Origin: an uncultured bacterium
Lineage (GTDB): Bacteria; JAGOEH01
Reading direction: 5' to 3'
DNA length: 20,000 nt
Assembly (NCBI GenBank): GCA_964632485.1
Contig: CAZWDO010000022.1
Span: 45,759 to 65,758 of the forward strand
This document shows positions 1,890 to 20,000 of the stretch, piece by piece. Below the pieces are notes generated by a model that searched no databases, had not been told where the DNA came from, and saw only the letters and a list, made by a program, of their open reading frames with translations. Numbering within the stretch: position 1 is the first letter of the stretch; the number at the start of each line of letters is the position of its first letter. Made by a program: the position numbers and the translations under genes.

Positions 1890-1891
1890 GG

Positions 1892-3178: not shown

Positions 3179-4589
3179 TCCGATCGTTTTAATTGATGAT
3201 GAGCCTTTGTTTTTAAACAGTGTGGCATTGATACTCCGCTCAGCGGGTTACAATCACATCATTAAATGCATCAATGATGTTGAACTGTTTGCCGCGCTCA
3301 AAGAGTATTCGCCTTCCTGTGTTCTCCTTGATTTGATAATGCCGAACAAGTCAGGCCTGGAACTGCTGCCTGAAATTCTCACCTGCTATCCTCATGTTCC
3401 CGTAATCATGGCCACGGCGATCCATGAGACTGATAAAATTGTGGAATTTATCAAATTGGGGGCGTTTAACTATTTGGTTAAGCCGATAGATGATATTATG
3501 CTGTTAAAATCTATTCGATTGGCGCTTGAATTTTACGATTTGAAAAACGAAAATGTGCTTCTTAAAAAGCACTTGCTGGCTGAAAACCTGGTGAATCCCG
3601 CGATTTTTTCTGCGATTATTACTCAGGATCGCATGATGAAATCCCTGTTTAAATATATCGAAACCATTGCTCGTAACTCATTTCCTGTTTTGATCACCGG
3701 AGAAACCGGAGTCGGTAAGGAATTGATTGCCCAGAGTATTCATCAGGCCAGCCAAAGATCTGGTAAATTTGTTCCTATCAACACCGCCGGCATTGACGAT
3801 ACGCTTTTTTCCGATCTTCTTTTCGGCCATCATAAGGGTTCGTTCACCAGCGCTGATAAACCTCGCAAGGGCATTTTGGAAGAAGCGGCTCACGGTACTC
3901 TTTTCCTGGATGAGATCGGCGACCTCAGTTATATCTCGCAAAGCAAACTATTACGTTTATTACAGGATGGCACCTATTACCCGCTTGGGTCGGATACTCA
4001 AAAATACAGCGCGACCCGTATTATTGCCGCGACGCATGTCAACCTGATGGAGGCGATGAACCAGGGAAAATTCCGCCAGGATTTGTTCTTTCGTTTACAG
4101 GTCCATCATATTGATATTCCGCCCTTGCGCGCCCGGCGTGATGATATTCCCCTCTTAATCGATTTTTTTACCATAAAGGCCGCTCAGGAGTTGAAACTAA
4201 AGAAACTGCGCTATTCGGATCAATTGGTTTCTCTTTTAATGAATTATTCGTTTCCGGGAAATATACGGGAACTGCAATCTTTTATTTTTGATGCCGCCAG
4301 TCAGCAGCAAAATGGAGTTTTATCCCTTGCCGCCATTAAAGTCCGAATAAAGCAAACTCAATACGACTACTCCGCCGGGGAAGTCCAGGAAAATTTTTTT
4401 CCAACGCACTCTGCCGACAACCCGGCGGTGATTTTCAGAGAGAAGCTGCCTTCCCTGAAAGAACTGGAGAATCAGTTGATTGAAGAGGCTTTGGCGCGTT
4501 GCAATGGCAACCAGACACTCGCCGCCAAACTCATCGGAATGAAACGAACCGCGCTTAATAATCGTCTTAATCGGCGTCTTTTACGCTGA
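3153..4589 (+). CDS. Sigma54-dependent response regulator (NtrC family: REC - AAA+ - Fis HTH)
   Basis: REC (LIDDE, LLDLIMP, YLVKP), Walker A GETGVGKE, loop-1 variant GSFTSA, Walker B LFLDEIG, FRQDLFFRL, FPGNIREL, HTH GNQTLAAKLIGM. Start moved from TTG 3135 to ATG 3153, which follows GGGAG at 3144-3148. Confidence 0.93.
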   Translation: MEQTFNPPDPIVLIDDEPLFLNSVALILRSAGYNHIIKCINDVELFAALKEYSPSCVLLDLIMPNKSGLELLPEILTCYPHVPVIMATAIHETDKIVEFIKLGAFNYLVKPIDDIMLLKSIRLALEFYDLKNENVLLKKHLLAENLVNPAIFSAIITQDRMMKSLFKYIETIARNSFPVLITGETGVGKELIAQSIHQASQRSGKFVPINTAGIDDTLFSDLLFGHHKGSFTSADKPRKGILEEAAHGTLFLDEIGDLSYISQSKLLRLLQDGTYYPLGSDTQKYSATRIIAATHVNLMEAMNQGKFRQDLFFRLQVHHIDIPPLRARRDDIPLLIDFFTIKAAQELKLKKLRYSDQLVSLLMNYSFPGNIRELQSFIFDAASQQQNGVLSLAAIKVRIKQTQYDYSAGEVQENFFPTHSADNPAVIFREKLPSLKELENQLIEEALARCNGNQTLAAKLIGMKRTALNNRLNRRLLR

Positions 4590-4725: not shown

Positions 4726-5991
4726 TTAGAAAAAAGTAACATCATCCGCCTCTTCAACCGAAGCTGTCGGGAATGAAGTGGAATCAGCTTCCAAATCCCC
4801 GGAAGGCGTTGTAGTTTTCAGAGTTAATGCGGCGATTTCCCGTTCCTGCTTCATGGTTGCCAGGTTGTCGTAATGACTGAGAATTTTAGTTTTCAATTCT
4901 TCATTGATTTCTTTTTCATCGAGAAACTTATTGATTTTGAGTTCGCAAAGCGCATTATTGACATCGCGCAAGGTCTGGGCAATATGAGTGGAAATTTGTC
5001 GGGTAATATCCTCGAATTGTAAATTAATAACAATGTTTTGGATTTCTGCGCGGGAAGTCGATGTATTTCCAAGAGTTCCGTCCATGACCGAGGATAACTG
5101 GATCAACGAATCAATGATAGAAAGAAAAAAATCTTTTAATAAAAAAATGGTTGAATTTATGAAATTTTTTTCGGCATCAGCGGTTTCCTTAATGGATAAA
5201 ACTGCCTGATCGATAAATATAGCGGTATGATCGAGTGTATCCTGTATTTTTTCGGCGGAATGGGTGGAATTGACGGCCAGTCGTTTAACTTCCTGCGCAA
5301 CTACGCCGAAGGCTTTGCCATATCGACCGGCCCTGGCAGATTCAATCGAAGCATTCAGCGATAAAATTTTTGTAGTCATAGCAAAATTAGAAATATCGCT
5401 CGAAAAGATTGAAATATCTTGCACTCGTTCCCGGATTTTATCCAATTTGGTTATATCTTCATTTTTAATATCGATGATGATCAGTAATTCGTTCAGTATT
5501 CCCTGAATTACCGTTTCATATTGTTGGCGAATTAATTGCATATTGTTTTGGGGCGCTGCTTCAGATTCCTGTTTTACAATATTTAAGGATAAACGTTTTT
5601 TAATGCTGCCGACAATGTCAGTCGTCTCGCCGACTGTGCGATCAATCTGGCTCAATAACCGGCCGAATCGTTCGACTGTATCGACTGTAGCTTCCTCAAT
5701 TTTACCGGACGTGTATTTCAGTTGATTATGTGTAACAGCAATCAGCTCCCTAATGCGACGCAATGAAAAAAATGCTTCAATCGTTTTATCTACTACTTCT
5801 TCCAGATGGCTGACCGTTGCGTTTTTTTTCTTTAATTCCTCTTCGAGAAATGCGATCTTCAGATTTTTTTGTTCAATTTCGTAGCGTAAAACGTTCAGTT
5901 CCTGCTGATCGGTTCCCTCACACAGCGGAACCGCATTTTCAGCAGGCAGTGTTTTCTGTTCCACGTTAAAGAAAGATGACTTGTCATACAT
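4726..5991 (-). CDS. Soluble MCP-like chemoreceptor (single signalling tip, QFxD motif, C-terminal pentapeptide)
   Basis: Hairpin tip TKILSLNASIESARAGRYGKAFGVVAQEVKRLA, LQFEDITRQ motif, acidic tail ending DVTFF, no TM. Start reassigned from 6108 (which overlaps the upstream gene) to ATG 5991 with AAAGGA upstream; 421 aa. Confidence 0.8.
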   Translation of the reverse strand: MYDKSSFFNVEQKTLPAENAVPLCEGTDQQELNVLRYEIEQKNLKIAFLEEELKKKNATVSHLEEVVDKTIEAFFSLRRIRELIAVTHNQLKYTSGKIEEATVDTVERFGRLLSQIDRTVGETTDIVGSIKKRLSLNIVKQESEAAPQNNMQLIRQQYETVIQGILNELLIIIDIKNEDITKLDKIRERVQDISIFSSDISNFAMTTKILSLNASIESARAGRYGKAFGVVAQEVKRLAVNSTHSAEKIQDTLDHTAIFIDQAVLSIKETADAEKNFINSTIFLLKDFFLSIIDSLIQLSSVMDGTLGNTSTSRAEIQNIVINLQFEDITRQISTHIAQTLRDVNNALCELKINKFLDEKEINEELKTKILSHYDNLATMKQEREIAALTLKTTTPSGDLEADSTSFPTASVEEADDVTFF

Positions 5992-6043
5992 GGATAATCC
6001 TTTTTTTCGAGCGGTACCATAAACGGCGAAACGATTGAAATTT

Positions 6044-6505
6044 CTATAATTCAGCAGAAATCGGTTGAATGACCGGGGTACTTTGCTGTAACCATTTGGT
6101 GAATTCAACTTTAGTTCCTTTGCCGATTACGGAATGAATATGAAACTCATCCGAGAGGCGTTTAACACCTGGCAACCCTAAACATAGCGCATTCCGGGAG
6201 TTGTCCCGTTCACGCAGAATTTCTTCAACATTGCGGATTCCAGCGCCCCGGTCTTCGAACACCAATAGAAAACCTTTGTCGTCACAGCCTTCCTTCTCAA
6301 TTATATAGGCGCTCATTTGGCCTTGTTTCGCATGAATTACAATATTTCTGGCCAGTTCCGAAGTAGCGGTCACAATCCGCATTTGATCCAATAATGAAAA
6401 TCCGTTTTCCACGGCTAACTGCTGAGATTTTTGCCGCGCCAGGGCAACATCTTCATAGCCGGCGATTAAGACCTCAATCAGTTTTACCGGGTTAATTTTT
6501 TTCAT
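6044..6505 (-). CDS. rsbT: RsbT-like serine/threonine kinase / anti-sigma regulatory factor (GHKL ATPase)
   Basis: 153 aa. RsbT-type motifs: DVALARQ, GFSLLDQMRIVTATSELARNIVIHA, FEDRGAGI, LGLPGVKRLSDEFHIHSVIGKGTKVEFTKW. SD AAAGGA upstream. Confidence 0.85.
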   Translation of the reverse strand: MKKINPVKLIEVLIAGYEDVALARQKSQQLAVENGFSLLDQMRIVTATSELARNIVIHAKQGQMSAYIIEKEGCDDKGFLLVFEDRGAGIRNVEEILRERDNSRNALCLGLPGVKRLSDEFHIHSVIGKGTKVEFTKWLQQSTPVIQPISAEL

Positions 6506-6653
6506 GAACTTCCTTTCGTTATCCCCTGTCGAGAGCGTTTTACGACAGTGGCAACAGGTGTAGATTAACTGTAAGTAGTTATATTCTATTGCCGCTTTTA
6601 CGAGTCAATTTTGCTGCGCTACTCCTTTTTTTAAAATATACATTTTTTGGGCG

Positions 6654-9563
6654 TCAGACTAATTCCTCAGGATTGAGAACCAAAACGACCTGTCCATTGC
6701 CTAATAGACAAACACCATTTAAAGCGCGAATGCCTACCATTTGCTCAGGCAGGGGTTTGATTGCAATTTCCGCTCTATTTTCCAGTTTATCCACCCGCAC
6801 ACCGAATTTTCCTGTCTGCGTCTTCAAAATCACGATTGGGATTTCATCACCCTCATGACGGGAAGAAGGATCATCAGCGGTTTGCAGCAGCGTTTCCAGA
6901 CGCTCTATTGGGATTACCTGTTCCCGGTAATGGATAAATGAACGTTCCCGCCAGTGATGGATTTGCGCGGCTTTGATTTTAATCATTTCAAGGACATAAT
7001 CAAAGGGAATGGCATATATGTTTTTTCCCGCTTTGACCATTAAGGCTGAGCTGATACCCATGGCCATGGGTATTTTAAGGGCAATATTAGTTCCCTGGCC
7101 GGCTTGAGAGTGTACTCTGATTTCGCCGCCGAGCGCCTTGATCGATGTTTGTACCACATCCATGCCAACTCCACGTCCGGATATATCGGTAATCTGTTGT
7201 TTGGTGGAAAACCCCGCCATAAAAATGATATTAAAAATACTATCGTCTTCCTCGGATTTAATGGGAATATTCATGGCTCTTGCTTTTTCCAGGATACGTT
7301 GGCGGTCCAATCCCCGGCCGTCGTCAATAATCGATATAATCAGATTGCGGCCCTCTTGTTCTGCTTTTAATATAATAGTTCCTTTTTCGTCTTTATGGGC
7401 TGCAATCCGTTCTTCAGGACTTTCAATACCATGATCACAGGCATTGCGGATAATATGGATCAAGGGGTCTGATAATGTATCCGCAACTTTTTTGTCAATT
7501 TCAGTTTCATTGCCGTATGTAAGAAATTCAATCTGCTTTTTCTGTTTGCGCGCAATATCCCGTACTACTCGTTGAAATTTTTGAAAAATTCCTTTGATGG
7601 GTGTCATGCGCATCGCCATCATTCCAGTCTGGATATTGTTCGAAATTCGTGAAATCAAATGCAGATTATCCTTAAATGAGCGAATGAGCGCAGTAGCGTC
7701 CGGGTTGGATTGAGTTAACTCATGGATGATATATTCGTAGGTATTTCGCGCCACGACCAGCTCGCCAATCAGGTTGGAAAAAACATCGATCTTCCTCTCA
7801 TCGACCCGCATGGTACGAATCTCGGATTCTTCTTTTAAGACCTCCGATTTTAACGATTTGCCAAGTTCCATCAATTCCTGTTTGTGTAAGCTCCGTTGCA
7901 AGTCCTCTTCACTGACCAAGCCGTTTTCAATGAGGATTTCGCCCAGTCGTTTTTGTCTGCCAAGCGCCGATTGCAAGATTGATTCAGTGATCAATCCTTC
8001 TTCAATCAGGATTTCACCCAGCTTTCGTGGTTCCGATGTTAGTCCCAGCAAAAAAAGAATCACTTCATCCAGGATTTCTACATAATCCTCGCCGGAAGGA
8101 TCTTCCAACGCGATTAACGCTTTATCCACTAAAGCCGGCAAGGTTTTGATATTCATATACTCCGATGCGCTTTTCAAGCTTTTTAAGGCTCGTAAGGTAA
8201 TACGCTTCGATTCGGGAATAGTTGACGCCGGTTTGCCATGGGTTCGAATAATTTCGCGGTACTGCTGGGATTGTTCCAGAAAAGTTGTCCTGACATCCTC
8301 AGATATAAACGAAACTGCGGATTTCTTGTCTCTGTTATCATCTGAGGGGTGAGAAAAAATCCGCAAATAATAGCCGACTGCGTGTTCAATTTGACCGATG
8401 CGGAGTTTGCCGCCACCATGGTTCATTACATTCAGCATTATTTTTAGCGTATCCACTGACTGAAGGGCTATATCAGTTATTTTTGGAGTAATAATCACTT
8501 CTCCCCGGCGTAATAAATCAAACAACGATTCCAGATTATGCAGAAATTGAGCCATTTCAGACAGATTAATATAACTGCAATCTCCCTTGAGCGTGTGCAG
8601 GGCGCGAAATATTTTCTGAATGGATTCCTGGCTGCCTTTTTTTTCGAGCTCTACTATGCTGGTTTCTAATATACTCAATAATTCCTGTGAACTGACGATG
8701 AATTCTTTCAGATTGGCGCTATTAATGCTATTAACCGATATCTCAATTTCTTTCTCGTCCGGATCAAACTGAATTTGTTCGGCTATATCCACGATATCGG
8801 CCAATGAGGGATCAAACAACAAATCCTTAATCGCTGCCTCATCAATTTTACAAACCAGAAAAATAGTGGCCTGGAAGGAAAGATGGAAGGGATTGAACTC
8901 GTCCAGGTCAGCAATTTTTTCGTCCGGGATAATCGCTTCATAATAAAGAGCCGTAGCCATCAGTTGACTCAGGAATACAGCCGGGTCATATCCATTGGCA
9001 AAGAACTCGTCGGAATAATTGAGTCGTATTTTAAAAAAGTGGTTTTGGTTGCCATATAAAGCTCGCATGCGCAAAATCGTGGAGTTTGGGACTTCATCAT
9101 TTTCTGATAGCGAATAAGGCGTCGGGGTAATGGGCGCTGGCTCCAACTTGCCGTCTGTGGATGGATTATTGATGCCCAGAGTTAATGCAGTCAATTTATC
9201 CACTAACTGGTTATCGATTGCGATCGGTAGTTTTTTTTCAATCCCGAGGATCATGGCATTAAGAGTGTCCACACTGTTTAGCACTACATCAATCAGTTCG
9301 GGGTTGATTGTGAGTTTCCTATCTCTGACCAGCGATAACACATTCTCTATATGATGCGCAAATTGGGAGATTTCCAGCAAATCAAAACTGCCGGCGCTTC
9401 CCTTGATCGTATGAATTCCCCGGAAGATAGAATCTATGCGATCCCTGTTGTCCGGATCGGCTTCCGTTTTGAGAATATCATCGCTGATGCCATCCAGAAT
9501 ATCCTTAGCCTCTGTGATAAACTGACGACGATAAAAATCAAGGTCCATTTCAATATTCGGCAT
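6654..9563 (-). CDS. cheA: Chemotaxis histidine kinase CheA with two Hpt domains, a degenerate third Hpt-like segment and a tandem MshEN-like motif
   Basis: 969 aa. IFRGIHTIKGSAG (H51), IFRALHTLKG (H323), dimerisation region MRVDERKIDVFSNLIGELVV, HATPase HIIRNACDHGIE / DDGRG / GFST / SGRGVGMDVV, C-terminal CheW-like P5. Confidence 0.96.
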   Translation of the reverse strand: MPNIEMDLDFYRRQFITEAKDILDGISDDILKTEADPDNRDRIDSIFRGIHTIKGSAGSFDLLEISQFAHHIENVLSLVRDRKLTINPELIDVVLNSVDTLNAMILGIEKKLPIAIDNQLVDKLTALTLGINNPSTDGKLEPAPITPTPYSLSENDEVPNSTILRMRALYGNQNHFFKIRLNYSDEFFANGYDPAVFLSQLMATALYYEAIIPDEKIADLDEFNPFHLSFQATIFLVCKIDEAAIKDLLFDPSLADIVDIAEQIQFDPDEKEIEISVNSINSANLKEFIVSSQELLSILETSIVELEKKGSQESIQKIFRALHTLKGDCSYINLSEMAQFLHNLESLFDLLRRGEVIITPKITDIALQSVDTLKIMLNVMNHGGGKLRIGQIEHAVGYYLRIFSHPSDDNRDKKSAVSFISEDVRTTFLEQSQQYREIIRTHGKPASTIPESKRITLRALKSLKSASEYMNIKTLPALVDKALIALEDPSGEDYVEILDEVILFLLGLTSEPRKLGEILIEEGLITESILQSALGRQKRLGEILIENGLVSEEDLQRSLHKQELMELGKSLKSEVLKEESEIRTMRVDERKIDVFSNLIGELVVARNTYEYIIHELTQSNPDATALIRSFKDNLHLISRISNNIQTGMMAMRMTPIKGIFQKFQRVVRDIARKQKKQIEFLTYGNETEIDKKVADTLSDPLIHIIRNACDHGIESPEERIAAHKDEKGTIILKAEQEGRNLIISIIDDGRGLDRQRILEKARAMNIPIKSEEDDSIFNIIFMAGFSTKQQITDISGRGVGMDVVQTSIKALGGEIRVHSQAGQGTNIALKIPMAMGISSALMVKAGKNIYAIPFDYVLEMIKIKAAQIHHWRERSFIHYREQVIPIERLETLLQTADDPSSRHEGDEIPIVILKTQTGKFGVRVDKLENRAEIAIKPLPEQMVGIRALNGVCLLGNGQVVLVLNPEELV

Positions 9564-9571
9564 ATTAATTC

Positions 9572-9937
9572 CTATCCGATGATCTTCTTTACAACATTTA
9601 GCAGGGTATCGGGTTTAAAAGGCTTAACAATCCAGGCTTTAGCCCCGGCCTGCTGTCCCTGTTGTTTCTTTGATTCTTCGCTTTCTGTTGTCAACATGAC
9701 AATCGGAATGAAGCGGTATTGCGCTTGCGCCTTTATTTGACGGATCATTTCGATACCATTCATATTCGGCATATTTAAATCGGTAAGTATCATATCAAAT
9801 TTGTTTTGCGTCAGCTTGTCCAATCCATCCAACCCATCGCAGGCTTCCACAGCTTCATAACCGTTGGAACGCAGAGTCATTGCAATTAATCCCCGCATGG
9901 AACCCGCATCATCGACTACTAAGATAGATTTTGGCAT
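9572..9937 (-). CDS. cheY: Chemotaxis response regulator CheY
   Basis: 121 aa single REC: ILVVDD, LTDLNMPNMNG, MLTTES, GAKAWIVKPF. Adjacent to cheA. Confidence 0.92.
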   Translation of the reverse strand: MPKSILVVDDAGSMRGLIAMTLRSNGYEAVEACDGLDGLDKLTQNKFDMILTDLNMPNMNGIEMIRQIKAQAQYRFIPIVMLTTESEESKKQQGQQAGAKAWIVKPFKPDTLLNVVKKIIG

Positions 9938-9962
9938 AAAATTTCCTTCTGCTGTATTTTAG

Positions 9963-10253
9963 TTATATACTGTCAATCTGATACAAACGAGCCATTTGAT
10001 CCAAAGCCGGAGAGGAATTTTTTTTAAGCAGGGCAATTCCTTTTCGGCGAAACGAATAAATAACTGTGCAAATCAATTGAAAATAATAGGTATCAATTTC
10101 TTCAATCTCACTGACATCTAAAGTAACCTGTTCCAAATTTTTATGATTGGCCATTGTTTCTTTCAAGAAATTAAGGTCCTCTTCAACCCGATGAATGGTC
10201 GCTTGATTGGGGAAGCGGATTTCCAGTGTATGATCATTTTTTTCGATAATCAT
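9963..10253 (-). CDS. Small STAS-domain (anti-anti-sigma-like) protein
   Basis: 96 aa. VTLDVSEIEEIDTYYFQLI matches the STAS LDxSxVxxID[S/T] motif. Its start overlaps the upstream stop (ATGA). Confidence 0.75.
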   Translation of the reverse strand: MIIEKNDHTLEIRFPNQATIHRVEEDLNFLKETMANHKNLEQVTLDVSEIEEIDTYYFQLICTVIYSFRRKGIALLKKNSSPALDQMARLYQIDSI

Positions 10254-10630
10254 GGTAGTTCCTCGCTACCCATTGTCCCGATCAGCATCTGGACATGAGT
10301 GATCAGAAACTGAGGTTGAACCGGTTTGGTGATGTAGAGATTGGCGCCGGATTTATATCCCATAAGTTTATTCTCGACCTCTTCCTGAGTGGTGATGATT
10401 ATTATGGGAGTTTCTTTTTCCAATTCGCGGTATTTGCGGATGAAGGTGAGGCCATCCATATTTGGCATATTGATATCGCATAAAATCAGATGATAGGTGT
10501 TAGCAAGAGCTTTTTCCAAAGCTTCGATACCATCCCCTGCGCCAGCCACATTGAATCCGACGGATTTCAGAATGTTCATGTGATAATTACGGACAACCGG
10601 TGAATCATCAACTACAAGGATATAATACAT
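10250..10630 (-). CDS. cheY: CheY-like single-domain response regulator
   Basis: 126 aa. ILVVDDS, LCDINMPNMDG, IITT, GANLYITKP. Confidence 0.85.
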   Translation of the reverse strand: MYYILVVDDSPVVRNYHMNILKSVGFNVAGAGDGIEALEKALANTYHLILCDINMPNMDGLTFIRKYRELEKETPIIIITTQEEVENKLMGYKSGANLYITKPVQPQFLITHVQMLIGTMGSEELP

Positions 10631-10633
10631 GGT

Positions 10634-11482
10634 TCACTCCTTACAATACACTAAAAATTTACCTGATCGTTGAAGTTTGAAGGCAGTTGTAATCCGGCCC
10701 AGTGATTCGCTTGAACCCAAAAAAATATACCCACTGGTCTTCAAGCTGGTGTAAAAATGATCGACTACCTGGCGGCGAGATATATCATCGAAATAGATCA
10801 GCACGTTACGGCAAAAAATAAAATCACAGTTGATGATGACTCTCATTTCATCCCGATTCTGAAGATTCAATTTTATGAATTTCACCATGGATTTCACCAT
10901 GGATTTCACTTCAAAGCGTTGTTTGGGGAGAATATTGAAATAGGTTTTCAAATAGGTTTCCGGGGTATCCATAATACTGCGTTTTTCGTAAACTCCAGCT
11001 TGGGCTTTGATCAACACTTTTTCATCGATATCGGAGGCGATAATCTCTATCTTCCAATCGGATACATCCTCAAGTATCTCATGAAGAATGATCGCTATCG
11101 AATAGGGTTCTTCTCCGGTGGAACAGCCGGCTGACCAGATGCGCAATGAATTATCGTTCAAAGTGATCTTTTGTTTAACGACTTCTGGCAGGCAAATATC
11201 GGCAAACGATTCCAATTGGGGAAAATCCCGGAAAAAATAGGTCTCATTAATAGTGATCTGATTCACCAGATTCTGGAATTCGTGGCCCTGAAGATCGGAA
11301 AACTTGAGATAACGGATATATTCGGCCGCAGAATTGAAGCCCATGACTTGCATCCGTTGAAATATGCGGTGATTAATAAAATAAATCTTTTTTGGTTCGA
11401 AACGGATACCGATCCGGCGGTAAATCATATCTGCCAGCCGATCGAATTCATCGATCGTTAACTGGAAATCAATTTCATTCAT
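10634..11482 (-). CDS. cheR: Chemotaxis protein-glutamate methyltransferase CheR
   Basis: TINETYFFRD, RIWSAGCSTGEEPYSIA, ASDID, DFIFCRNVLIYFD, GYIFLGSSES. The probable start is ATG 11482 (GGAG upstream, ATGAATGA coupling with the HEAT gene stop), giving 282 aa; the ORF track's 11749 start lies inside the HEAT gene. Confidence 0.95.
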   Translation of the reverse strand: MNEIDFQLTIDEFDRLADMIYRRIGIRFEPKKIYFINHRIFQRMQVMGFNSAAEYIRYLKFSDLQGHEFQNLVNQITINETYFFRDFPQLESFADICLPEVVKQKITLNDNSLRIWSAGCSTGEEPYSIAIILHEILEDVSDWKIEIIASDIDEKVLIKAQAGVYEKRSIMDTPETYLKTYFNILPKQRFEVKSMVKSMVKFIKLNLQNRDEMRVIINCDFIFCRNVLIYFDDISRRQVVDHFYTSLKTSGYIFLGSSESLGRITTAFKLQRSGKFLVYCKE

Positions 11483-12473
11483 TGTCTTCTCCCGGGTTTG
11501 TACCCAGACTGGTTTGGCAAAATTCTCTAATATCCGGAAAGGGAGCCTTGTCGGCAATTGCCTGCAAGTACGTATTTCGCAGGGCCGATTCAGACTGGTC
11601 GATGAGCTCAATTCCATAGAATTGATATTCGATGCGTAAATCGGGAGAAAGCACAATGTCATGCAGAAGCCTGACAGTTTGTTCCGGGAGAGGATGTTGA
11701 CGTACCAGATTTTGTATTGAATATAAGCTCTTGATAATATCTTCGCCATAAAGTATCGGATCTGTCAATGAATCAATAATATGAAAAATAGTATCCACAA
11801 ATCCGCCCCGGGTTGCCAATTTCAATAATGATGGAATATAAATTGCCTGCGAATCCGGCGCCTTATCGGCTGAAACCGATAATTGAAGTAGCAGTGATTC
11901 TATATCCTCGGCGTTAGCCAATTCACTTAACGTTTCCAGAATAGAGTCTTTCAACATCGGTTCCCGGGTATGGCTGAAAAGATCTATCATTTCAGGAATA
12001 CTGGCTCTATCATTCAAACGGCCCAAATATTCCACCGCGGTAATGACGACATTAATGGCGGGATCATATAAAGCTGCCCGCAGGGCAAAAATAGCATCCT
12101 CGGTACCCAATTCAACCAGGGTATCCAATATCAGTTTTCGTACTTCTTTGTTGGCATGATCCAGTTTTGATCCTAAAAAAACAATGGTATCCAAGCCGTA
12201 TGCTGAGAGAATAGCTACCGCTGAATTGCGCAGATAAGCGTCCGCTGAGCTGTATAATTCAAAAATCGTTTCATAGATCAGCGGATTATTCGATTTTTTC
12301 AGGGCAAACACCAGCGCATCACGGACGACGGGAGATGATTCCTTTTTAAGCCGGTCCATTAACGCCTGCGCCCAATTCGATGATTTCAGCGACATGATAT
12401 CATCAACCGCATAGAGTCTCACCGTTTCATCGGGATCATTGATTTGGCGCGCTAATGTATCCTGGGATTCCAT
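11475..12473 (-). CDS. HEAT-repeat (PBS-lyase-like) protein of the chemosensory operon
   Basis: 332 aa. Repeated helical units DPDETVRLYAV, SPVVRDALVFAL, DAYLRNSAVAIL, NKEVRKLILDTL, DPAINVVITAVEYLG. Lies between cheB and cheR; SD AGGAG. Confidence 0.85.
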   Translation of the reverse strand: MESQDTLARQINDPDETVRLYAVDDIMSLKSSNWAQALMDRLKKESSPVVRDALVFALKKSNNPLIYETIFELYSSADAYLRNSAVAILSAYGLDTIVFLGSKLDHANKEVRKLILDTLVELGTEDAIFALRAALYDPAINVVITAVEYLGRLNDRASIPEMIDLFSHTREPMLKDSILETLSELANAEDIESLLLQLSVSADKAPDSQAIYIPSLLKLATRGGFVDTIFHIIDSLTDPILYGEDIIKSLYSIQNLVRQHPLPEQTVRLLHDIVLSPDLRIEYQFYGIELIDQSESALRNTYLQAIADKAPFPDIREFCQTSLGTNPGEDNE

Positions 12474-12655
12474 TTTTTCTCCTGTTCAGGGTGTTGCTTG
12501 ATAGTGGTGGTTCCGGCTATGCGCGAATTAAGGTTATTCCACAATTACCGGCCCAATATCCGGGGTAGATTGAATCTTTATGTTGCTTCAACGACCTGTC
12601 CGAAACAGATCGATGGGTACAACCCCGGGTTCAGGACCCGTGAAGCGCGATTGAT

Positions 12656-13744
12656 TCAGCCATGCCGGTTAAGTTTTTCTACATTCCGGACAATTTCGCC
12701 AGCGATTTTATAATTGGGCGCGACGATATCGACACCTCCGCGGTCAATGGCCTCCTTGGGCATGCCGAAGACCACGGCAGTTTCTTCACTTTCAGCGATT
12801 GTAATTCCACCGGCTTGTTTGATTTTCACCATGGCATCGGCGCCATCATCCCCCATCCCGGTCATCAGCACTCCCACTGTCCGATGGCCATATTGCTGCA
12901 ACACTGATTCCATCATGACCCCTACCGAAGGAATAAATAAGTGGGTTGGAAGTGTGGATAACCGAATCTGTTTTTCCCCGCTGTTTTTTTCACGCAGTAA
13001 TAGATGAAATCCCCCTTTGGCCAAATAACCGCAACTATTTTGGACAGGATCGCAACTCTCGGCTTCCTTGATGGAAAACTTGACGTACTGGTTGAGGCGT
13101 TTGGCAAAAGAACTGGTGAAATTGGGCGGCATGTGCTGAACAATAAATATTGCGGCATCTAAGTCGGCCGGTAATTCGATCAATATATCCATAAGAGTTT
13201 TGGGTCCGCCCGTGGAAACGCCGATGGCGATAGCGGTTTTTACCGCATCTGTTCTCCCTCCCCATTCGCGTTTTTTAGTTTTGGATACTTGATAACGCTC
13301 GGAAGGCGAGCGTTTTTGCCGGTTTCTGATTCGCTGTAAAGAACCGCCGCGAGTGGCGGCTTTCACTTTCTCGATGATCTCCGCTTCCACCCGATGGATG
13401 TTCATGGAAACGGTCCCTCCCGGTTTAGCAATAAAATCGAAAGCTCCCAGCTCCAAAGCCTCAAAGGTAATCAGTGCGCCTTCCTGGGTCAATGAACTAA
13501 CCATAATTACCGGGCAAATATTTTCGCTGACAATTACCTGCAGAGCCGTTATTCCATCAATTCCCGGCAGATTGATATCCATGGTAACCACATCCGGTCG
13601 TAATTCCCTGGCTTTTCTAATGCCGTCCTCGCCATCCCGCGCCAATCCAATCACTTCAATTTCAGCGTCCGCTTCCAATATATTTTTTAATGCCTTTCGC
13701 ATAAAAGCTGAATCCTCAACAATCAAGACACGAATTTTTTTCAC
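12656..13744 (-). CDS. cheB: Chemotaxis response regulator protein-glutamate methylesterase CheB
   Basis: 362 aa. REC (VEDS, TMDINLP, DFIAKP) plus methylesterase triad motifs GVSTGG, QHMP, MTGMGDDG; VVFGMPKEAI. GTG start. Confidence 0.96.
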   Translation of the reverse strand: MKKIRVLIVEDSAFMRKALKNILEADAEIEVIGLARDGEDGIRKARELRPDVVTMDINLPGIDGITALQVIVSENICPVIMVSSLTQEGALITFEALELGAFDFIAKPGGTVSMNIHRVEAEIIEKVKAATRGGSLQRIRNRQKRSPSERYQVSKTKKREWGGRTDAVKTAIAIGVSTGGPKTLMDILIELPADLDAAIFIVQHMPPNFTSSFAKRLNQYVKFSIKEAESCDPVQNSCGYLAKGGFHLLLREKNSGEKQIRLSTLPTHLFIPSVGVMMESVLQQYGHRTVGVLMTGMGDDGADAMVKIKQAGGITIAESEETAVVFGMPKEAIDRGGVDIVAPNYKIAGEIVRNVEKLNRHG

Positions 13745-13837
13745 GGGGCGCTTTTTCCTCTCGTAATTTCAAACCGTTACAGAATCCAACCGGCGCGAAT
13801 TTGAGCTATCAACCGCTACCGGCTGGTTTCATTGTTA

Positions 13838-15826
13838 TTATCGAACTTTTTTCAGCTTGTGGGGAACCGGGGGAATGGAATTCTCGGGTGAAAAATCCTC
13901 TTTCTCAGGAGTTACCTTAGAAGAATTCTCCGCCAGTGCTGGTTTTGTTTCAAGCTGTTCCTCGGTGTTTTTAATCGTTTTTCGCGCGTTTCCGCCTGTT
14001 TCGGAATTCAGCGCCTGCTGCTCATCGGTTGAAAGTATCCTGGAAACCTCAATCAATATAATCATACGCTCATTTTGGTCCATTTTACCGATTCCCTTGA
14101 TGAACTCGGTTTGAAAATCCGCGCTGAGAATATCCGGCGGCGCTTCAATCGCTTGTTTGGACATTCTAAGCACTTCCGAAACTGAATCCACAATAAGACC
14201 CGTCAGTTTATTATTAATATTTACAATGATAACCCGTGTGGCTTCGTCATGCTCTCTCAATTCCATCCCAAAGCGCTTCCGCAGATCGATAGCCGGGATC
14301 ACATTGCCGCGCAAATTAATAACCCCTTCGACAAATTCCGGCACCCGGGGGACGCTGGTAATGTTTTCCAGTCGGTTAATTTCCTGCACCTCCTCAATTT
14401 GCAAACCAAATTCCTCTTGACCCAGCCGGAAGGTCACCAATTGAATCTCTTCATCCTTCAACAGGTTTTCCTCCCGCTTGACTTCGACGTCGTCCGCTTT
14501 TTTATTAACCGTCATATCATCCAGTTCCTTCATTTTAATATCGCTGAGCAGATGATTTTCATCCAACAGCAAAATAAGCCGTTTACCTTCATTCAGCTTG
14601 ACAATGCCGTTAAGATTTTCTGTTTGATCGCAGCTTCCCAGTATTGTAGGCGGGGGATCGATATTACTTTCCAGAATACGGATCACTTGTTGCATTCGGT
14701 CAACCAGGATGCCAACGGGCATTTTATTGATTTCAACCACCAGAACCCGTTGATCTTCACGGATTTCCTTTTTGATTGCTTCTTTAAGCTCACTAAATTT
14801 TAACAGAATCTGATTAGAAATAGTCACGATTTCTTTTTCATAGACAGCCATGGTTTCAGCGCGGGAATTCAAATGATAATTGGCGATTATCTCCCGCGCT
14901 TTAAGCATCTGTTTTTGATTGATAAAACGAATGTCCTGGATCACCTTGGCAATCAATTCACTGGAGGTGCGAAAACTTTCAATCCATCTCCCAGTTTCGT
15001 TTTTATCCGCATTGAGGATACCGCCGAAACTGGTTTGGGATTCAACGGCATGGCGATACGAATCGAGCCAATAGTTATGTTCTTTTTCTAAGGAGACGAT
15101 TTCGTCTTGAATATCGTCAATGTAAGAAGAGATGTCGAATAGTTTACGGATATCGATGACCGGCAGCAGAGTATTGCGAATACAGAAGATGCCCATGACA
15201 TAATCGGGGGCTTCGGGGACCTCTGTAATACGTTCCACGCGAAGGACTTCGCGGACGGATTCTATGGGAAATCCATATTCCTCCCCGGCGGTGAGAAATG
15301 TTACCAATTGAATTTCTTTTGCGGCGGTTTTCACAGTTTGATTATAATCGCTCGTTTTAGCCGATGACAAGGAAGCGCTTGTGTCAACCGTAATAGCGCA
15401 CAGGGCATCCACGTCCAATTCGAGAATCATCTTCTCACCGTTAGCCGTTTTAATGACAGACTGAACATATTTAACATCCACACCCGAGGAGAGTATTGGC
15501 GGTGGGGCTTCCACGTTGGTATTTTCCATGCTGATAACACCCTTTACCGAATCGACAATCACCCCGGCGGTTGAAATTCCGGTATCGAGGATCAGTACGC
15601 GGGTGCTATCAGTAATGTCCGCTTTCTCAAGTCCCAGTCGGCTGCGGGCATCAATGACGGGTAGCACATTGCCGCGCAGATTGGCTAATCCGTTGAGATA
15701 ATAGGGAGCTCGTGGCACATGGGTAATTCTGGGGTAGCGGACAATCTCCTTGATTTTATTGATGCCGATCCCAAACAACTCTTCGCCAATGCGAAAAGTT
15801 GCAGTCTGAGAGTTAGTATTGGCCAT
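13838..15826 (-). CDS. cheW: Triple-domain CheW; the second domain carries a ~125 aa CZB-like insertion
   Basis: 662 aa. Three CheW repeats: ATFRIGEELFG..GLANLRGNVLPVID; LVTFLTAGEEYG..GIFCIRNTLLPVID; LVTFRLGQEEFG..GVINLRGNVIPAID. Each later has GxxVDxV/M. Confidence 0.92.
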   Translation of the reverse strand: MANTNSQTATFRIGEELFGIGINKIKEIVRYPRITHVPRAPYYLNGLANLRGNVLPVIDARSRLGLEKADITDSTRVLILDTGISTAGVIVDSVKGVISMENTNVEAPPPILSSGVDVKYVQSVIKTANGEKMILELDVDALCAITVDTSASLSSAKTSDYNQTVKTAAKEIQLVTFLTAGEEYGFPIESVREVLRVERITEVPEAPDYVMGIFCIRNTLLPVIDIRKLFDISSYIDDIQDEIVSLEKEHNYWLDSYRHAVESQTSFGGILNADKNETGRWIESFRTSSELIAKVIQDIRFINQKQMLKAREIIANYHLNSRAETMAVYEKEIVTISNQILLKFSELKEAIKKEIREDQRVLVVEINKMPVGILVDRMQQVIRILESNIDPPPTILGSCDQTENLNGIVKLNEGKRLILLLDENHLLSDIKMKELDDMTVNKKADDVEVKREENLLKDEEIQLVTFRLGQEEFGLQIEEVQEINRLENITSVPRVPEFVEGVINLRGNVIPAIDLRKRFGMELREHDEATRVIIVNINNKLTGLIVDSVSEVLRMSKQAIEAPPDILSADFQTEFIKGIGKMDQNERMIILIEVSRILSTDEQQALNSETGGNARKTIKNTEEQLETKPALAENSSKVTPEKEDFSPENSIPPVPHKLKKVR

Positions 15827-15840
15827 AATTTCTCCCTGGT

Positions 15841-17805
15841 TTAATTGCTCTGTAGTTCATCAGCCAGGGAAGAAATCTCTTCGATAGCTTGAGATAATTC
15901 CTGTAATCCTTTGGCTTGTTCTTCCGCGGCGGAAGCGGCTTGACTGACAGATTTGGCTGCTTCTTCGGCGGCCGCGCCGATTTGATCCACGCCTTTTTTC
16001 GATTGTTCAATGGCGGATAATGATTCACGGGCATTCTGCAGGATCTCGTCCATCGATTTACCGACAACCAACATATCGTTTTCAATTTTTATGAGATTGG
16101 AAGAAGAGATTTTTGCCCGTTCCGTTTCCGACAAAGCCGTACGCGCCGCCAGTTCAACGTCCTGGGTATTTTTAGAGACCTGGAACTGGAGTGAGCGGAC
16201 GAGGTCCTTGATTTTATCAGCATTTTCCGCTGACTCAGTGGCCAGGTTACGAATATCGCCGGCAACCACTGAAAAACCGCGGCCGTGTTCCCCTGCTCGC
16301 GCCGCCTCAATGGAACCGCTGACTGCCAACATATTGGTTTGAATTGTGACATTCATAATCGCTTCTACAATCTTGTCAATCTTCTGGGTTTTTTCATCCA
16401 ACTGTCGGATATTTTCGGCAGCTTTCAAATTTTCGTTCCCGGCGCGGGTTATATTGATGATAAACTGATCCACTCCAGTTTTATTTTCACCCAATATCAC
16501 TTTTATGCTTTCACTCTGTTTGAGCATATCAGTGGAATTGCCCTCAACCTGCCGGGCAACGGTAGCGATCGAATCCGACATTTGCATACCGTTGCTGGCC
16601 TCTTTGGATTGTATGCCTGTCGCAGTACTGATCTGCTCGATGGCTTTAGCCAATTCCTGTGAAGCCGATGTGGCTTCCTCGACGTTGGCCGATAATTGTT
16701 CGGACATTGAGGCCAGTTCCTCGGCTGATTTCTGAACATCTGTGGAATTCTTCAATTCCTCGGCGGTTTGCGCCAAATCCTGGGCTGCTGTCGTCATCTC
16801 CGAAAAAGCCTTGATTTGCTGTTCGGTGCCTTTTCGAGATTCCTCAGCGCTGGAGGTTAATTCCTCGGAAGCGGTAGCTACTGCTTCGGCCATTTTCAAA
16901 AAATCTTTTGATTCGCCCAGTATTTTTTGAACGCCACCCTCCATTTCACGGGATATTTTCTGAAATTTGTCCATACTGGCGCCAATAGTTGCCAGGTCAA
17001 CACTAATCTTCTTGCCTTTTTCCGATTCGTCCTTAGCATTTTTACCGATATTGTTAATTTCAGCTACTACATTACGGACGGAGGACTGAATTTCTGCGAC
17101 CACATCCTTGATTTCGCGGGCGCTGCGTTCTGAGATTTCGGCAAGATTGCGCACTTCATCGGCAACCACGGCAAAACCGCGGCCATGTTCTCCGGCCCGC
17201 GCGGCTTCAATAGCTGCATTCAAGGCCAGTAAATTGGTTTGATCCGCAATTCGTACCACAGCCTGTACAATATTTCCGATCTCCTCGGATTGCCGTTCCA
17301 ACTGAACCATGAGTCTGGCGGTATCAAGCGCTGCATCAGCGGATGTGTTGACACCGGCAATGACGGAATCAACTCCTGTAATTGTTTCCCCGACCAAAGC
17401 TTTCAATTGATTTACTTTACTCAGTATATCCGCTGAAAGAGTGGCATTCACTTGGGCATTTTTTTCGATTTGGACAATTGCAGCCCTGGATTCCTCAGAT
17501 GCGCTGCTTGCCTCTTCCGCGCCGGAGGCAATCTGTTCCATCGAGCGATTCAGTTCCTCCGCCGCGCCGCTGCTTTCCTCGATTCCGCTGGATAACTGCT
17601 CCGTCGCTGTTGCGATTCTTTCAGCGATCTGCTGCTGTTTCGCCAAGGTCTTAGCTCGTGTTTTTTCCTGGGCAATGCGCTTGGCTTCTTCACGTTTTAG
17701 CGTGAATTCATCCATTTTCAGGTCATCATTTTCCACCGTGGCTCTGTATCCTGAGCCAGATTTCGCTAACCCCTTTCCGGATAATCCTTTTTTCCTAATT
17801 TCCAT
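15841..17805 (-). CDS. Soluble methyl-accepting chemotaxis protein with two signalling domains (DosM/F9-type)
   Basis: 654 aa, no TM, no sensor domain. Tip 1 [37 protein letters not shown]; tip 2 [37 protein letters not shown], exactly 300 aa apart. Many (A/S)xxEE/EQ/QE methylation-like sites; SD AGGAGG. Confidence 0.92.
16261..17210. repeat. Internal duplication within the MCP gene (two tip-coding segments 900 nt apart)
   Basis: 16261-16310 and 17161-17210 match at 42 of 50 nt (GGCAACCAC.G.AAAACCGCGGCC.TGTTC...), counted by eye. Confidence 0.85.
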
Positions 17806-17830
17806 AATTTCCCTCCTTGAGGGTTAAATG

Positions 17831-18271
17831 TTAATTCAGCGCGTCCAGGTTCTCTTTCAGGGTTGTGTCATCCGGAAACGCTTTTCTTCCATATCGGAGT
17901 ATCATCTTCGCATCAGAAATGCGATTCGATTCCGCGTATAAAATCGCCAGATTATTGATAGCTTTGGAATTGTTGTGGATGCTGTTCGATAAACGATAAC
18001 AATATACCGCCTCCTCGCGGTATGAAGCATCCTCCAGCTTTAATCCGATGGTGAAAAAGAGTTCGGATAAATCTTCATGATGATAAAAAATGTCACTAAT
18101 AAAACTCTCCATATAATTAACGATTTGCTCGTTTTCCATTTTTTCCAAATCCTGATAACATTGATTCATACGTTCTGTGAATAGATTTTTTAAAAGATCG
18201 ATATTATCTTCAATCAAGAGATTTTGACGAATAAAATCCTGTAGAGTAATTCCATAGGTTGGTGTTTTCAT
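17831..18271 (-). CDS. Small hypothetical protein with C-terminal TPR-like repeats
   Basis: Probable start ATG 18271 (SD AAGGAG), 146 aa. ELFFTIGLKL..YREEAVYCYRLS and KAINNLAILYAESNRISDAKMILRYGRKAFPDD fit the TPR pattern. Confidence 0.65.
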   Translation of the reverse strand: MKTPTYGITLQDFIRQNLLIEDNIDLLKNLFTERMNQCYQDLEKMENEQIVNYMESFISDIFYHHEDLSELFFTIGLKLEDASYREEAVYCYRLSNSIHNNSKAINNLAILYAESNRISDAKMILRYGRKAFPDDTTLKENLDALN

Positions 18272-18299
18272 CGTGATACTCCTTCTTTCGATAGGGCGC

Positions 18300-19040
18300 T
18301 CAGGAAAGAATGTGTTGAGCAAGATTTAAAAAATCTTCGGAAGCCCGGGTATGTGGCGAATAAAGAATTACCGGCAACTGGTTCCAGGCTGAATCGGCAA
18401 TTTTAACATCTTGGCGGATTCCAGTTTGCAATAATTTGTCGTTGAATATCTTCTCCAATTGAGCACAGACTCCCGCCGCATGATTGGTACGCATGCCGGT
18501 CATAACTGGGATCACCGCTGTCAGTTTTAAATCCGGATTTATTTTTTTTGATATTTTCACCAGCAAACCGATTAGTTCCGCCAATCCTTCCATTGCTAAA
18601 AATTGTAAGGGCAGTGGAATCATAAGTTCAGTCGAAAAAGACAGGGAGAATATAAGAATGTCCTCGCGGGAGGGAGGGGTATCGATCAATATAAAATCAT
18701 ATAAATCGGCTACCGGATCGATAAAATTCCGGAAATCTCTTTGCAAGCCGTACATCACATAGGGTTCATCCTTATGATAAGAGGGAATGATATCATATAA
18801 TCCTTGCGGTCCCTGAACAATTGCCTCAGTCAGAGGAAATGATTTTCGGATAACCGATCCGATTCCCCGTTTTTTTTCATAGGTGTCGATACCCGATATC
18901 AGCGTCGCATGACTTTGCGGGTCCAAATCCATAATCAATACCCGCTGACCCAGTTTACCCAATACCGCTCCCAGGTTGACGACAACAGTAGTTTTTCCGC
19001 TGCCGCCCTTCTTGTTCGCAAATGTAATGATTCTGGCCAT
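18300..19040 (-). CDS. parA: ParA/Soj-family ATPase (orphan; PpfA/ParC-like chemoreceptor-array partitioning candidate)
   Basis: 246 aa. Deviant Walker A NKKGGSGKTT, DLDPQ, YDFILIDTPP, FLAMEGL, MRTN, IRQDVKIADS, YSPHTRASEDF. No parB in the window. Confidence 0.9.
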   Translation of the reverse strand: MARIITFANKKGGSGKTTVVVNLGAVLGKLGQRVLIMDLDPQSHATLISGIDTYEKKRGIGSVIRKSFPLTEAIVQGPQGLYDIIPSYHKDEPYVMYGLQRDFRNFIDPVADLYDFILIDTPPSREDILIFSLSFSTELMIPLPLQFLAMEGLAELIGLLVKISKKINPDLKLTAVIPVMTGMRTNHAAGVCAQLEKIFNDKLLQTGIRQDVKIADSAWNQLPVILYSPHTRASEDFLNLAQHILS

Positions 19041-19053
19041 TTGTTTTCCTTTA

Positions 19054-19482
19054 TTATATGGCTTGCAGGCCCTGTTTGGTTGGGTGCTCGTTTGCTTTTT
19101 GTAACCGTTTGTTCAATATCATGTTGATCTTTGACAATAACTCCTCGGGAGCGAATGGCTTTTCAATATACTCACAGTCGATCTGCCTGATTTTAGCTTC
19201 TATTTCCGAACTTACAAAACCCGTAATGATCAGGATCGAAATTGGGTATTTCTGCCGATGTATCTGTTCGATCAATTCGAATCCAGTTTTTCCGGTCATT
19301 TGAATATCGGTAATCGCTAAATCCACTGGTTCATCAATCTGTTGGCTCCTGACAATATAATTCCAGGCGCTTTCACAATTATCAGCCGTTTCCACTTCAA
19401 AACACAATCCTTTTAAAATGAAACGCAAGGCGCTGACAATATATAATTCATCATCGATAATCAGGATTTTAGTTTTCTTCAT
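19054..19482 (-). CDS. Single-domain response regulator (REC), first gene of the operon
   Basis: 142 aa. ILIIDDE, ITDIQM, IITG, YIEKPF. Confidence 0.88.
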   Translation of the reverse strand: MKKTKILIIDDELYIVSALRFILKGLCFEVETADNCESAWNYIVRSQQIDEPVDLAITDIQMTGKTGFELIEQIHRQKYPISILIITGFVSSEIEAKIRQIDCEYIEKPFAPEELLSKINMILNKRLQKANEHPTKQGLQAI

Positions 19483-19570
19483 GGCATTAGTTCTTTTAAT
19501 ATCCGGAAACGTTTTGACACGGGCGCTCCAGGGATAAGGTTTGATTTCCTAACAGGGTAAGCATATATAA

Positions 19571-19587
19571 TGCAGGTTTTGTGCCAA
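19571..19587 (-). promoter_or_regulatory. Sigma54 (-24/-12) promoter for the chemosensory operon
   Basis: Minus strand reads TTGGCACAAAACCTGCA: TGGCAC at -24, GG-N10-GC spacing, TGCA at -12. It sits ~90 nt upstream of the first ATG (19482), in the correct orientation. Confidence 0.8.
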
Positions 19588-19996: not shown

Positions 19997-20000
19997 GCCA

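Follow-up and report, generated by a model that had tools for sequence, protein, structure and literature searches.

Gene content of the locus

Fourteen co-oriented genes on the minus strand (positions 4726-19482) of a 20,000-nucleotide (nt) stretch of contig CAZWDO010000022.1, from an uncultured bacterium, encode a chemosensory system together with a ParA-like ATPase, a small STAS-like protein and an RsbT-type kinase. The whole stretch is referred to here as the window; it is the final 20 kb of its contig, and the view upstream of the genes ends at position 20000. Because of their gene content, their synteny with 67 other loci and the position of their CheA in a tree of kinase cores, the 14 genes are very probably an F9-type chemosensory operon similar to cluster I of Vibrio cholerae.

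In the order of transcription, the run encodes a receiver-domain (REC) protein, the ParA-like ATPase, a small TPR-like protein, a double-tip methyl-accepting chemotaxis protein (MCP), a fused triple CheW (3xCheW, or CheW3), CheB, a HEAT-repeat protein, CheR, a second REC protein (CheY1), the STAS-like protein, a third REC protein (CheY2), CheA, the HATPase_c_2 kinase and a second MCP. Nine of the 13 gene junctions overlap or are no longer than 28 nt, and the remaining four measure 52, 93, 148 and 182 nt, with the two widest between cheB and the HEAT gene (182 nt) and between cheA and the kinase gene (148 nt). Pfam scans of 17 open reading frames (ORFs) in the window found no CheC, CheD, CheX, CheZ, flagellar or pilus families, as an earlier note on this DNA had stated. 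The features are given below with the E values of their profile matches; lengths are in amino acids (aa).

19054..19482, minus strand: stand-alone receiver (142 aa), first gene of the run; Response_reg 3e-19
18300..19040, minus strand: ParA/MinD-family ATPase (246 aa) with the deviant Walker A motif KKGGSGKT; AAA_31 8.6e-37, also CbiA and MipZ; ParA_partition 8.9e-23, below cut-off
17831..18271, minus strand: small ParA-adjacent TPR-like protein (146 aa from ATG); the ORF reaches 18322 from TTG (146-163 aa)
15841..17805, minus strand: double-tip soluble receptor, DosM-like (654 aa); MCPsignal 1.2e-63 in three stretches
13838..15826, minus strand: fused triple CheW scaffold (662 aa); CheW 4.8e-104 in four stretches
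14783..15082, minus strand: CZB-like insert of about 100 aa inside the middle CheW, seen as a split CheW match and homologous to the CZB inserts of relatives
12656..13744, minus strand: CheB methylesterase with receiver domain; CheB_methylest 3.9e-57, Response_reg 3.7e-23
11475..12473, minus strand: HEAT-repeat protein (332 aa); HEAT_2 9.4e-20; homologue in 36 of the 67 related loci
10634..11482, minus strand: CheR methyltransferase, likely start ATG at 11482; CheR 4.2e-56, CheR_N 5e-11
10250..10630, minus strand: CheY-like receiver 1 (126 aa); Response_reg 2.3e-29
9963..10253, minus strand: small STAS-like protein of 96 aa, whose Thr55 occupies the phospho-Ser position of anti-sigma antagonists; STAS_2 7.7e-5 and STAS 3.3e-4, both below cut-off
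9572..9937, minus strand: CheY-like receiver 2 (121 aa); Response_reg 1e-28; CheY model 7.5e-26, below cut-off
6654..9563, minus strand: CheA (969 aa) consisting of Hpt, a conserved module, a second Hpt (4.2e-15), a helical linker, an MshEN-like pair, P3, P4 and P5, from Pfam and an alignment with five clade members
7878..8024, minus strand: two 24-residue MshEN-type motifs in tandem, at residues 514-537 and 539-562 of CheA and immediately N-terminal to its dimerisation domain
6044..6505, minus strand: RsbT-type HATPase_c_2 Ser/Thr kinase (153 aa), preceded by the 148-nt gap; HATPase_c_2 9e-9
4726..5991, minus strand: second soluble receptor (421 aa from ATG at 5991) with a single tip; MCPsignal 7.1e-19

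Neither receptor contains a hydrophobic or transmembrane stretch (the highest Kyte-Doolittle means over 19 residues are 1.19 and 1.51), and together with the ORF listing and the Pfam matches this bears out the description of 14 co-oriented genes with two soluble receptors. The first receptor has tip motifs at residues 200 and 500, exactly 300 apart, a spacing that was also seen in relatives wherever the motif search found two tips; the second has one tip motif, at 217. The start of the second receptor ORF is doubtful, since a TTG start would reach 6108 and overlap the kinase gene by 65 nt. The CheR ORF (10634-11749) likewise has a doubtful start, extending 89 codons upstream over the HEAT gene, and both of its Pfam matches begin at residue 100 of the long ORF. 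The CheW3 protein, for which 973 homologues were found at E <= 0.001, has three CheW domains matched in four stretches of one ORF, the middle domain being split (profile positions 1-76 and 65-137, 300 nt apart). The triple cheW of the earlier note is therefore present, as one fused gene.

Relationship to F9-type clusters

In order to place the operon, we used CheW3 alignments to gather 160 loci, of which species genomes and metagenomes supplied 80 each. A metagenome scan with the CheW3 protein alone had given 39 pattern matches and no relatives among them, and was repeated with the alignment. A DosM-like ORF is directly followed by a multi-CheW ORF in 69 of 161 sources (the 160 loci plus the window), and after removal of one duplicate pair this gave a reference set of 67 receptor+3xCheW loci besides the window. 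The order common to them is receptor-CheW3-CheB-(HEAT)-CheR-CheY-...-CheA-...-CheY-MCP. The set includes Alphaproteobacteria, Bacillota, Myxococcota and Spirochaetota, plus two Gammaproteobacteria (Pseudomonas oryzihabitans and a metagenome-assembled genome, MAG, of the Saccharospirillaceae).

A FastTree phylogeny of 92 CheA kinase cores, with local Shimodaira-Hasegawa-like support only, placed the window CheA in a clade of six rows (support 100) with L061, L084, L006, L001 and L081, all of which are receptor+3xCheW loci. A branch with support 95 has 44 of the 45 CheAs linked to receptor+3xCheW loci on one side; on the other are 42 of the 43 other CheAs and three of the four paralogues of the window's own genome. 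The single other CheA on the F9 side of this split (L010) comes from a contig that is cut short and opens within a CheW3 gene, and L091, on the opposite side, belongs to a rearranged version of this type of cluster. The layout of V. cholerae cluster I recognised in the earlier note (double-tip receptor, triple CheW, CheB, HEAT protein, CheR, CheY, CheA and second MCP) is supported by synteny with the 67 loci and by the CheA tree. Two points count against the placement: the tree has no named V. cholerae sequence among its rows, and the two nearest genomes among the 60 relatives searched, one of the same family and one of the same order in a sparsely sampled lineage, showed no triple CheW at E <= 1e-40.

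Accessory proteins and genomic surroundings

The STAS-like gene was found to be a widespread core part of such clusters, and not an add-on. A family profile seeded with the window protein and clear homologues, and rebuilt three times, found 41 ORFs, of which 38 lie inside receptor+3xCheW loci. The gene is present in 35 of the 67 loci and in 23 of the 29 that cover at least 2.5 kb upstream and at least 1.5 kb beyond cheA, so it belongs to the core of the class. Pfam STAS_2 matches 18 of 30 aligned members unaided (best 3.1e-13). The window protein itself is under both Pfam cut-offs (23.2 vs 29.2 bits; 20.8 vs 22.6), a point against the preferred reading given below. An hhalign comparison of the family profile with a canonical STAS from this genome (probability 75.8%, E 2.3e-5) placed Asp54-Thr55 on the Ser of the GSSG motif, with Thr55 following a conserved Asp at the start of helix 2. 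Matches of the family to the PDB were weak (TM1442, the best, 0.037; SpoIIAA 0.25-0.36), but were to anti-sigma antagonists. In the family alignment Gln59 is invariant and the D/H-T motif is strongly kept, with Thr itself kept in most members, not all.

The position of the STAS-like gene varies among lineages. In alpha- and gammaproteobacterial clusters it is an ORF of 80-90 aa directly 3' of cheA, followed by cheY2 or by parA and cheY2, and in the clade of the window it lies between cheY1 and cheY2. In L001, a Spirochaetales MAG, the STAS part and CheY2 share one 221-aa ORF (15357-16022), which could be a genuine fusion or result from misassembly. Because the two are adjacent in most arrangements and fused in this relative, the STAS-like protein may well work with CheY2. 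None of the 120 listed database members of the family carries a precomputed Pfam domain, and they are called hypothetical wherever the source names them. Searching the protein database with the STAS profile gave no entries carrying a Vibrio name; the family may correspond to VC1396, a small ORF between cheA1 and cheY1. The passages searched in two V. cholerae reviews (PMC7534058, PMC11940527) do not name STAS, HEAT or ParA genes for cluster I.

The kinase encoded behind cheA has nearest homologues of 132-139 aa with 45-55% identity, and 16 of the 49 listed are named RsbT by the Joint Genome Institute (JGI). The RsbT label agrees with the earlier note and derives from these names, not from curated models; in NCBIfam the kinase matches SpoIIAB at 4.3e-12 and RsbW at 0.0036, both far below cut-off. 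Its N, G1 and G2 boxes are kept (E50, N54, D85xGxG and GLGLPG), and no close paralogue was found in the genome. Homologues in the 160 loci were counted from single-sequence phmmer searches. Iteration of a hidden Markov model from the kinase was discarded, having drifted into CheB and REC ORFs because longest-ORF calls overlap neighbouring genes.

The only STAS gene of the window is the 96-aa one, 3.5 kb from the kinase gene, and a predicted complex of the two proteins scored 0.76 (best of three controls, 0.03). Among solved complexes 58 of 80 attained the mark for this score, as did 2 of 110 mismatched pairs; these counts are only rough here, where our own alignments were used. The runs agreed in at least 93% of contacts, with a predicted local distance difference test (pLDDT) score of at least 87 for the partner. 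In the model, STAS residues 53-56 contact residues 49-50 and 113-117 of the kinase, which brings Thr55 to the active site. Complexes of SpoIIAA with SpoIIAB have been solved structurally, and the high score may therefore reflect family likeness and not this particular pair. On balance, a real kinase-STAS pair is slightly favoured.

Complete RsbR-RsbS-RsbT modules of the stressosome type were observed within 10 kb of F9-type clusters in two other loci. In Fervidicola ferrireducens (L015, 2412-5741) the module is followed by genes for a kinase/PP2C-like protein and for a GGDEF protein; in a deltaproteobacterial genome (L003, 8207-12440) the genes that follow encode another kinase and a histidine kinase of RsbU_N-HisKA-HATPase architecture.

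CheA contains two Hpt domains, a dimerisation domain, HATPase_c and CheW according to Pfam. The region between the Hpt domains (8750-9100; CheA residues ~160-270) is a conserved module of about 100 aa with no Pfam match, which is common to the clade and duplicated in L006 (16295-19576), and may be a P2-like CheY-docking domain. The MshEN motif is published as RLGxx(L/V/I)(L/V/I)xxG(L/V/I)(L/V/I)xxxxLxxxLxxQ, which in MshE occurs in two copies with a 5-residue spacer, forming a 53-residue unit (PMC5013675). Both copies in the window satisfy the strict consensus (R/K at the first position), at CheA residues 514 and 539. In phmmer searches the segment matched the solved MshEN-type domains of PilF (6f8l, 8.2e-13), PilB (9.4e-6) and MshE (5htl, 3.4e-5), which upholds the label MshEN-like given to this CheA. 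The module is kept in four of the five clade relatives and missing from L081, and a pattern search found two relaxed-consensus copies in none of the other 54 F9-linked CheA ORFs. An AlphaFold2 (AF2) model of the motif pair has four short helices (block pLDDT 81-88). A Foldseek search of the PDB with a 166-residue model (CheA 495-660) gave no match at E <= 0.001; the model is a small bundle with long P3 helices, and the search says little. Two metagenomic CheAs of another class (L159, L160) also have a tandem MshEN-type pair, with a 7-residue spacer and close to the N-terminus (residues 144-198).

With 32 GGDEF matches in the genome, cyclic di-GMP (c-di-GMP) is plausible as a ligand, and from its sequence the pair in CheA may bind it, although we regard this as tentative and the less probable case. 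Against such binding, the spacer is a single residue instead of five, both in the window and in four clade relatives, as a consequence of which HMMER opens a gap of 4-6 residues in the window sequence at that point; Pfam T2SSE_N does not match the CheA segment at E <= 10; and a Lys occupies a core hydrophobic position in the four nearest CheAs.

ParA homologues are encoded in 13 of the 67 loci, three of them upstream of the receptor gene and ten downstream of CheW3, mostly between the STAS gene and cheY2. The ATPase is a recurrent part of the class, and not the addition peculiar to this cluster that had been supposed. Homologues of the small TPR-like protein occur in five of the 67 loci (L001, L007, L008, L082 and L098) and in L091, which the strict rule of receptor-CheW3 adjacency had left out of the set, and the gene is directly 3' of parA wherever the contig permits a view. 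The window copy has no significant Pfam match (TPR_19, E 0.07). The TPR label nevertheless holds through the homologues, with six of the seven family members matching Pfam TPR families and only the window copy too divergent. In its AF2 model (mean pLDDT 72), residues 1-15 are below 50 and confident helix pairs span residues 65-145. ParA-type positioning of chemoreceptor arrays is known from PpfA and TlpT of R. sphaeroides, and the ParC/ParP system of Vibrio is described as a ParA-family ATPase with a partner that ties it to the array (PMC5706961, PMC7534058). The gene linkage and the analogy with these two systems make it reasonably likely that the ParA and TPR proteins would position the array.

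The insert within the middle CheW domain is CZB-like by descent. Pfam CZB (PF13682) is found in 24 of 120 listed CheW3 homologues, and the window insert aligns with theirs. The zinc ligands of CZB domains are His, Cys, His and His (H...CxxGxW...HxxxH), and the inserts of P0005, P0044 and P0061 keep all four (His, CxxGxW and HxxxH). In the same alignment the window insert keeps the first His, has Asn in place of Cys and has lost HxxxH, so that three of the four ligands are gone; taken alone, it matches no Pfam family, including PF13682. An insert is present in eight of the 67 other loci and absent from L061 and L009, which are nearest by CheA. The CZB-like character noted earlier thus holds as homology to relatives that carry Pfam CZB, and fails as an intact zinc site. 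Sensing of zinc or oxidants by the window copy is unlikely, and it is probably a structural relic.

Outside the operon, three two-component genes on the plus strand (12-4589) converge on it, encoding a REC-PAS-HisKA_2/HWE-type histidine kinase, a PAS histidine kinase and an NtrC-type sigma-54 activator (REC, Sigma54_activat, HTH_8; 3135-4589), the last lying at the operon's other end. A possible promoter element was found ahead of the first gene:

19571..19586, minus strand: sigma-54-like -24/-12 element TGGCAC-N5-cTGCA, lying 86-105 nt ahead of the first gene; treated as no more than a lead

No other site in the window fits the pattern with one mismatch or fewer, but chance alone predicts 0.68 such sites (one or more in 100 of 200 shuffles), so by count the element does not exceed chance. 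Counts of promoter-like sites (41, against 30.9 +/- 5.8 in shuffles) and of terminator-like sites (18, against 16.1 +/- 3.8) were uninformative.

Some 4 kb ahead of the window, the plus strand (L161, 6808-10032) carries genes for a GAF-PP2C phosphatase and a sigma-70-family factor of 287 aa, along with an ORF of 163 aa. The genome has four further CheA-like genes and is rich in parts for partner switching, with 21 PP2C, 15 STAS and 29 HATPase_c_2 matches. A second chemosensory cluster (contig C1:358000-376000, L162) begins with STAS-CheY-Hpt-CheA-CheW-Hpt/CheW, in which CheA is split, continues with CheR-like and CheB-like ORFs (tblastn matches only) that have CheD between them, and ends with a HATPase_c_2 protein of 301 aa and a phosphatase of REC-PP2C type. 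This arrangement is similar to the F7 stage-1 layout in PMC7184735.

Proposed mechanism, alternatives and known systems

The reading that best accounts for these observations is an F9 operon whose array is positioned by the ParA and TPR proteins, linked to Ser/Thr signalling through the kinase and the STAS-like protein, and possibly supplied with a c-di-GMP input; we give it as a whole a probability of roughly 0.55. By analogy with V. cholerae, the two-tipped receptor, the triple CheW and CheA would build a membrane-free array with a double baseplate, which CheB and CheR would adapt. CheA would phosphorylate both CheYs, and the MshEN-like pair before its dimerisation domain may let c-di-GMP act on it directly. 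The ParA-like ATPase and its constant TPR neighbour would position or segregate the array, with the TPR protein as the partner that links the ATPase to it. The RsbT-type kinase, added behind cheA in this genome, most likely docks on the STAS-like protein and phosphorylates Thr55, which would tie the array to Ser/Thr partner-switch signalling. The occurrence of RsbT-type kinases or modules near four loci of different phyla and the complex model connect the kinase to the system, and partner-switch signalling by the operon is plausible.

Several findings weigh against this output. Only 4 of the 67 loci (L003, L015, L018 and L024) have an rsbT-like gene, in no case between cheA and the second MCP gene, so rsbT is not conserved beside orthologous clusters, which is part of what the earlier note had named as refuting its reading. 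Where the contig of a clade relative extends beyond cheA (L001, L061 and L006), no room for the gene is left there. The 148-nt gap before the kinase gene is the second largest of the operon, the lid region of the kinase departs from the family consensus, and Pfam scans of the window ORFs found neither RsbR nor RsbS beside it. RsbU_N is the classical target of RsbT; it had no match in the genome, which is 97.95% complete, and a control found it in B. subtilis. The absence of the gene from this position in all 67 loci, the gap before it and the atypical lid region would fit a kinase that is a passenger left over from a stressosome-type module, without a chemosensory role and acting on other STAS proteins or on none. 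Its best relatives in the loci belong to the complete modules of L015 and L003, and potential partners are available among the 15 STAS and 21 PP2C matches elsewhere in the genome. We consider this unlikely, however, given that the gene is co-oriented and lies between two operon genes, that no terminator-like site was found on its strand in the flanking gaps, and that the kinase has no close paralogue. The RsbT-like kinases near such clusters in four further loci of different phyla point the same way, as does the complex model with the operon's Thr55 in the active site (0.76 against 0.03), although a pair of this kind is a textbook case.

A related alternative accepts the STAS-like protein as part of F9 arrays and makes it structural or an adaptor, at CheY2 or in the baseplate, with Thr55 kept for the fold and all signalling passing through the CheYs. 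The family is short (~80 aa in Alpha- and Gammaproteobacteria), with no precomputed Pfam domain among the 120 listed members, and Thr55 is replaced in several alpha- and gammaproteobacterial members. No RsbT-like kinase was seen within the available flanks of 31 of the 35 STAS-bearing loci, so the core role of the protein cannot depend on a kinase encoded beside it, and its fusion to CheY2 in L001 would also suit an adaptor. The kinase could nevertheless be encoded elsewhere in those genomes, phospho-switching is well established for the STAS fold family, and the D/H-T motif and Gln59 are strongly kept, which together make a purely structural role rather improbable, if somewhat less so than a passenger kinase. 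Ordinary motility chemotaxis, in which the CheYs act on the flagellar switch and the extra genes only tune or place the pathway, seems very unlikely. It would agree with the full CheA/W/Y/B/R set of the operon, with the FliM encoded in the genome, which makes a motor output possible, and with the ranking of F9 among the flagellar (F) classes in PMC7534058. The window itself has no flagellar genes and no CheZ, CheC or CheX, the four additional CheA-like genes could serve a motor, and deletion of the F9 cheA in V. cholerae is described as giving no detectable motility phenotype under standard conditions (PMC7534058). The suggestion of the earlier note that partner switching replaces a motor is not supported as stated and stays an inference, given the encoded FliM and the lack of an RsbU_N match.

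The input and output of F9 systems are described as open since the arrays were first imaged, with deletions lacking a phenotype under standard conditions (PMC7534058). The most useful general outcome is the cryptic STAS-like protein coupled to CheY2 across these clusters, which together with a candidate cognate kinase gives the question of F9 output concrete proteins and one residue, Thr55. The ParA-TPR pair is a new candidate module for positioning cytoplasmic arrays, and the MshEN-like pair is a candidate direct link from c-di-GMP to CheA. One could go further and propose that the F9 class signals not to the motor but through the STAS-like protein and CheY2 as a Ser/Thr partner-switch output, of which this genome shows the full circuit with a cognate RsbT-type kinase and a CheA that reads c-di-GMP through a dimer-proximal MshEN-like module; in this strong form the proposal is speculative and unlikely.

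Parts of the operon can be compared with known proteins. The likeness of CheA to the N-termini of MshE, PilF and PilB consists of two 24-residue motifs and significant matches to solved domains; it differs in its 1-residue spacer, in lacking MshEN_C and in placing the pair inside CheA just before P3. A fusion of MshEN to CheA is mentioned by Wang et al. 2016 (PMC5013675). The triple CheW, like CheW-CZB proteins and CheWS of T. denticola, joins a sensor-type domain to CheW, and both CheW-CZB and 3xCheW are among the architectures listed in PMC8262984 and PMC10653840. In the window, however, the domain sits inside the middle CheW of a triple CheW and has lost three of four ligands. In PpfA/TlpT and ParC/ParP too, a che cluster contains or adjoins the gene of a ParA-family ATPase, which a partner protein connects to the array, whereas the partner here would be a 146-aa TPR protein with neither the CheW domain of ParP nor the receptor domain of TlpT, which is itself a receptor.

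Other resemblances are to partner-switching systems. The operon shares with RsbR-RsbS-RsbT stressosome modules a kinase whose homologues are named RsbT and a STAS protein of RsbS size, and it differs in having no RsbR, no second STAS and no RsbX or RsbU. F7 stage 1 systems and Che1 of S. oneidensis, with CrsR/CrsA, are described as probably acting on a partner switch by which RpoS is controlled (PMC7184735, PMC9855816). They too are chemosensory clusters with an anti-sigma antagonist (STAS) and a Ser phosphatase or kinase, but they belong to another class, contain CheD and separate single-domain CheW genes, and have no DosM; in the window the RsbT-type kinase stands alone, the operon includes no phosphatase, and the STAS protein is much shorter and cryptic.

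The closest known counterpart is cluster I of V. cholerae, compared here by its published description and not by sequence. Its cytoplasmic double-layer array is described as consisting of the CheA VC1397, the triple CheW VC1402 and the receptor DosM VC1403, DosM-type receptors are reported from other genomes with F9 systems (PMC7534058), and its function is called still unknown (PMC7534058, PMC11940527). Both clusters have a DosM-type receptor, a fused triple CheW, CheB, CheR, two CheYs, CheA and a further receptor, and neither has CheC, CheD, CheX or CheZ. To this common plan the window adds ParA and the TPR protein in front, STAS-CheY2 before cheA, a CheA with two Hpt domains and an MshEN-like pair, a CZB-like insert in CheW and the RsbT-type kinase.

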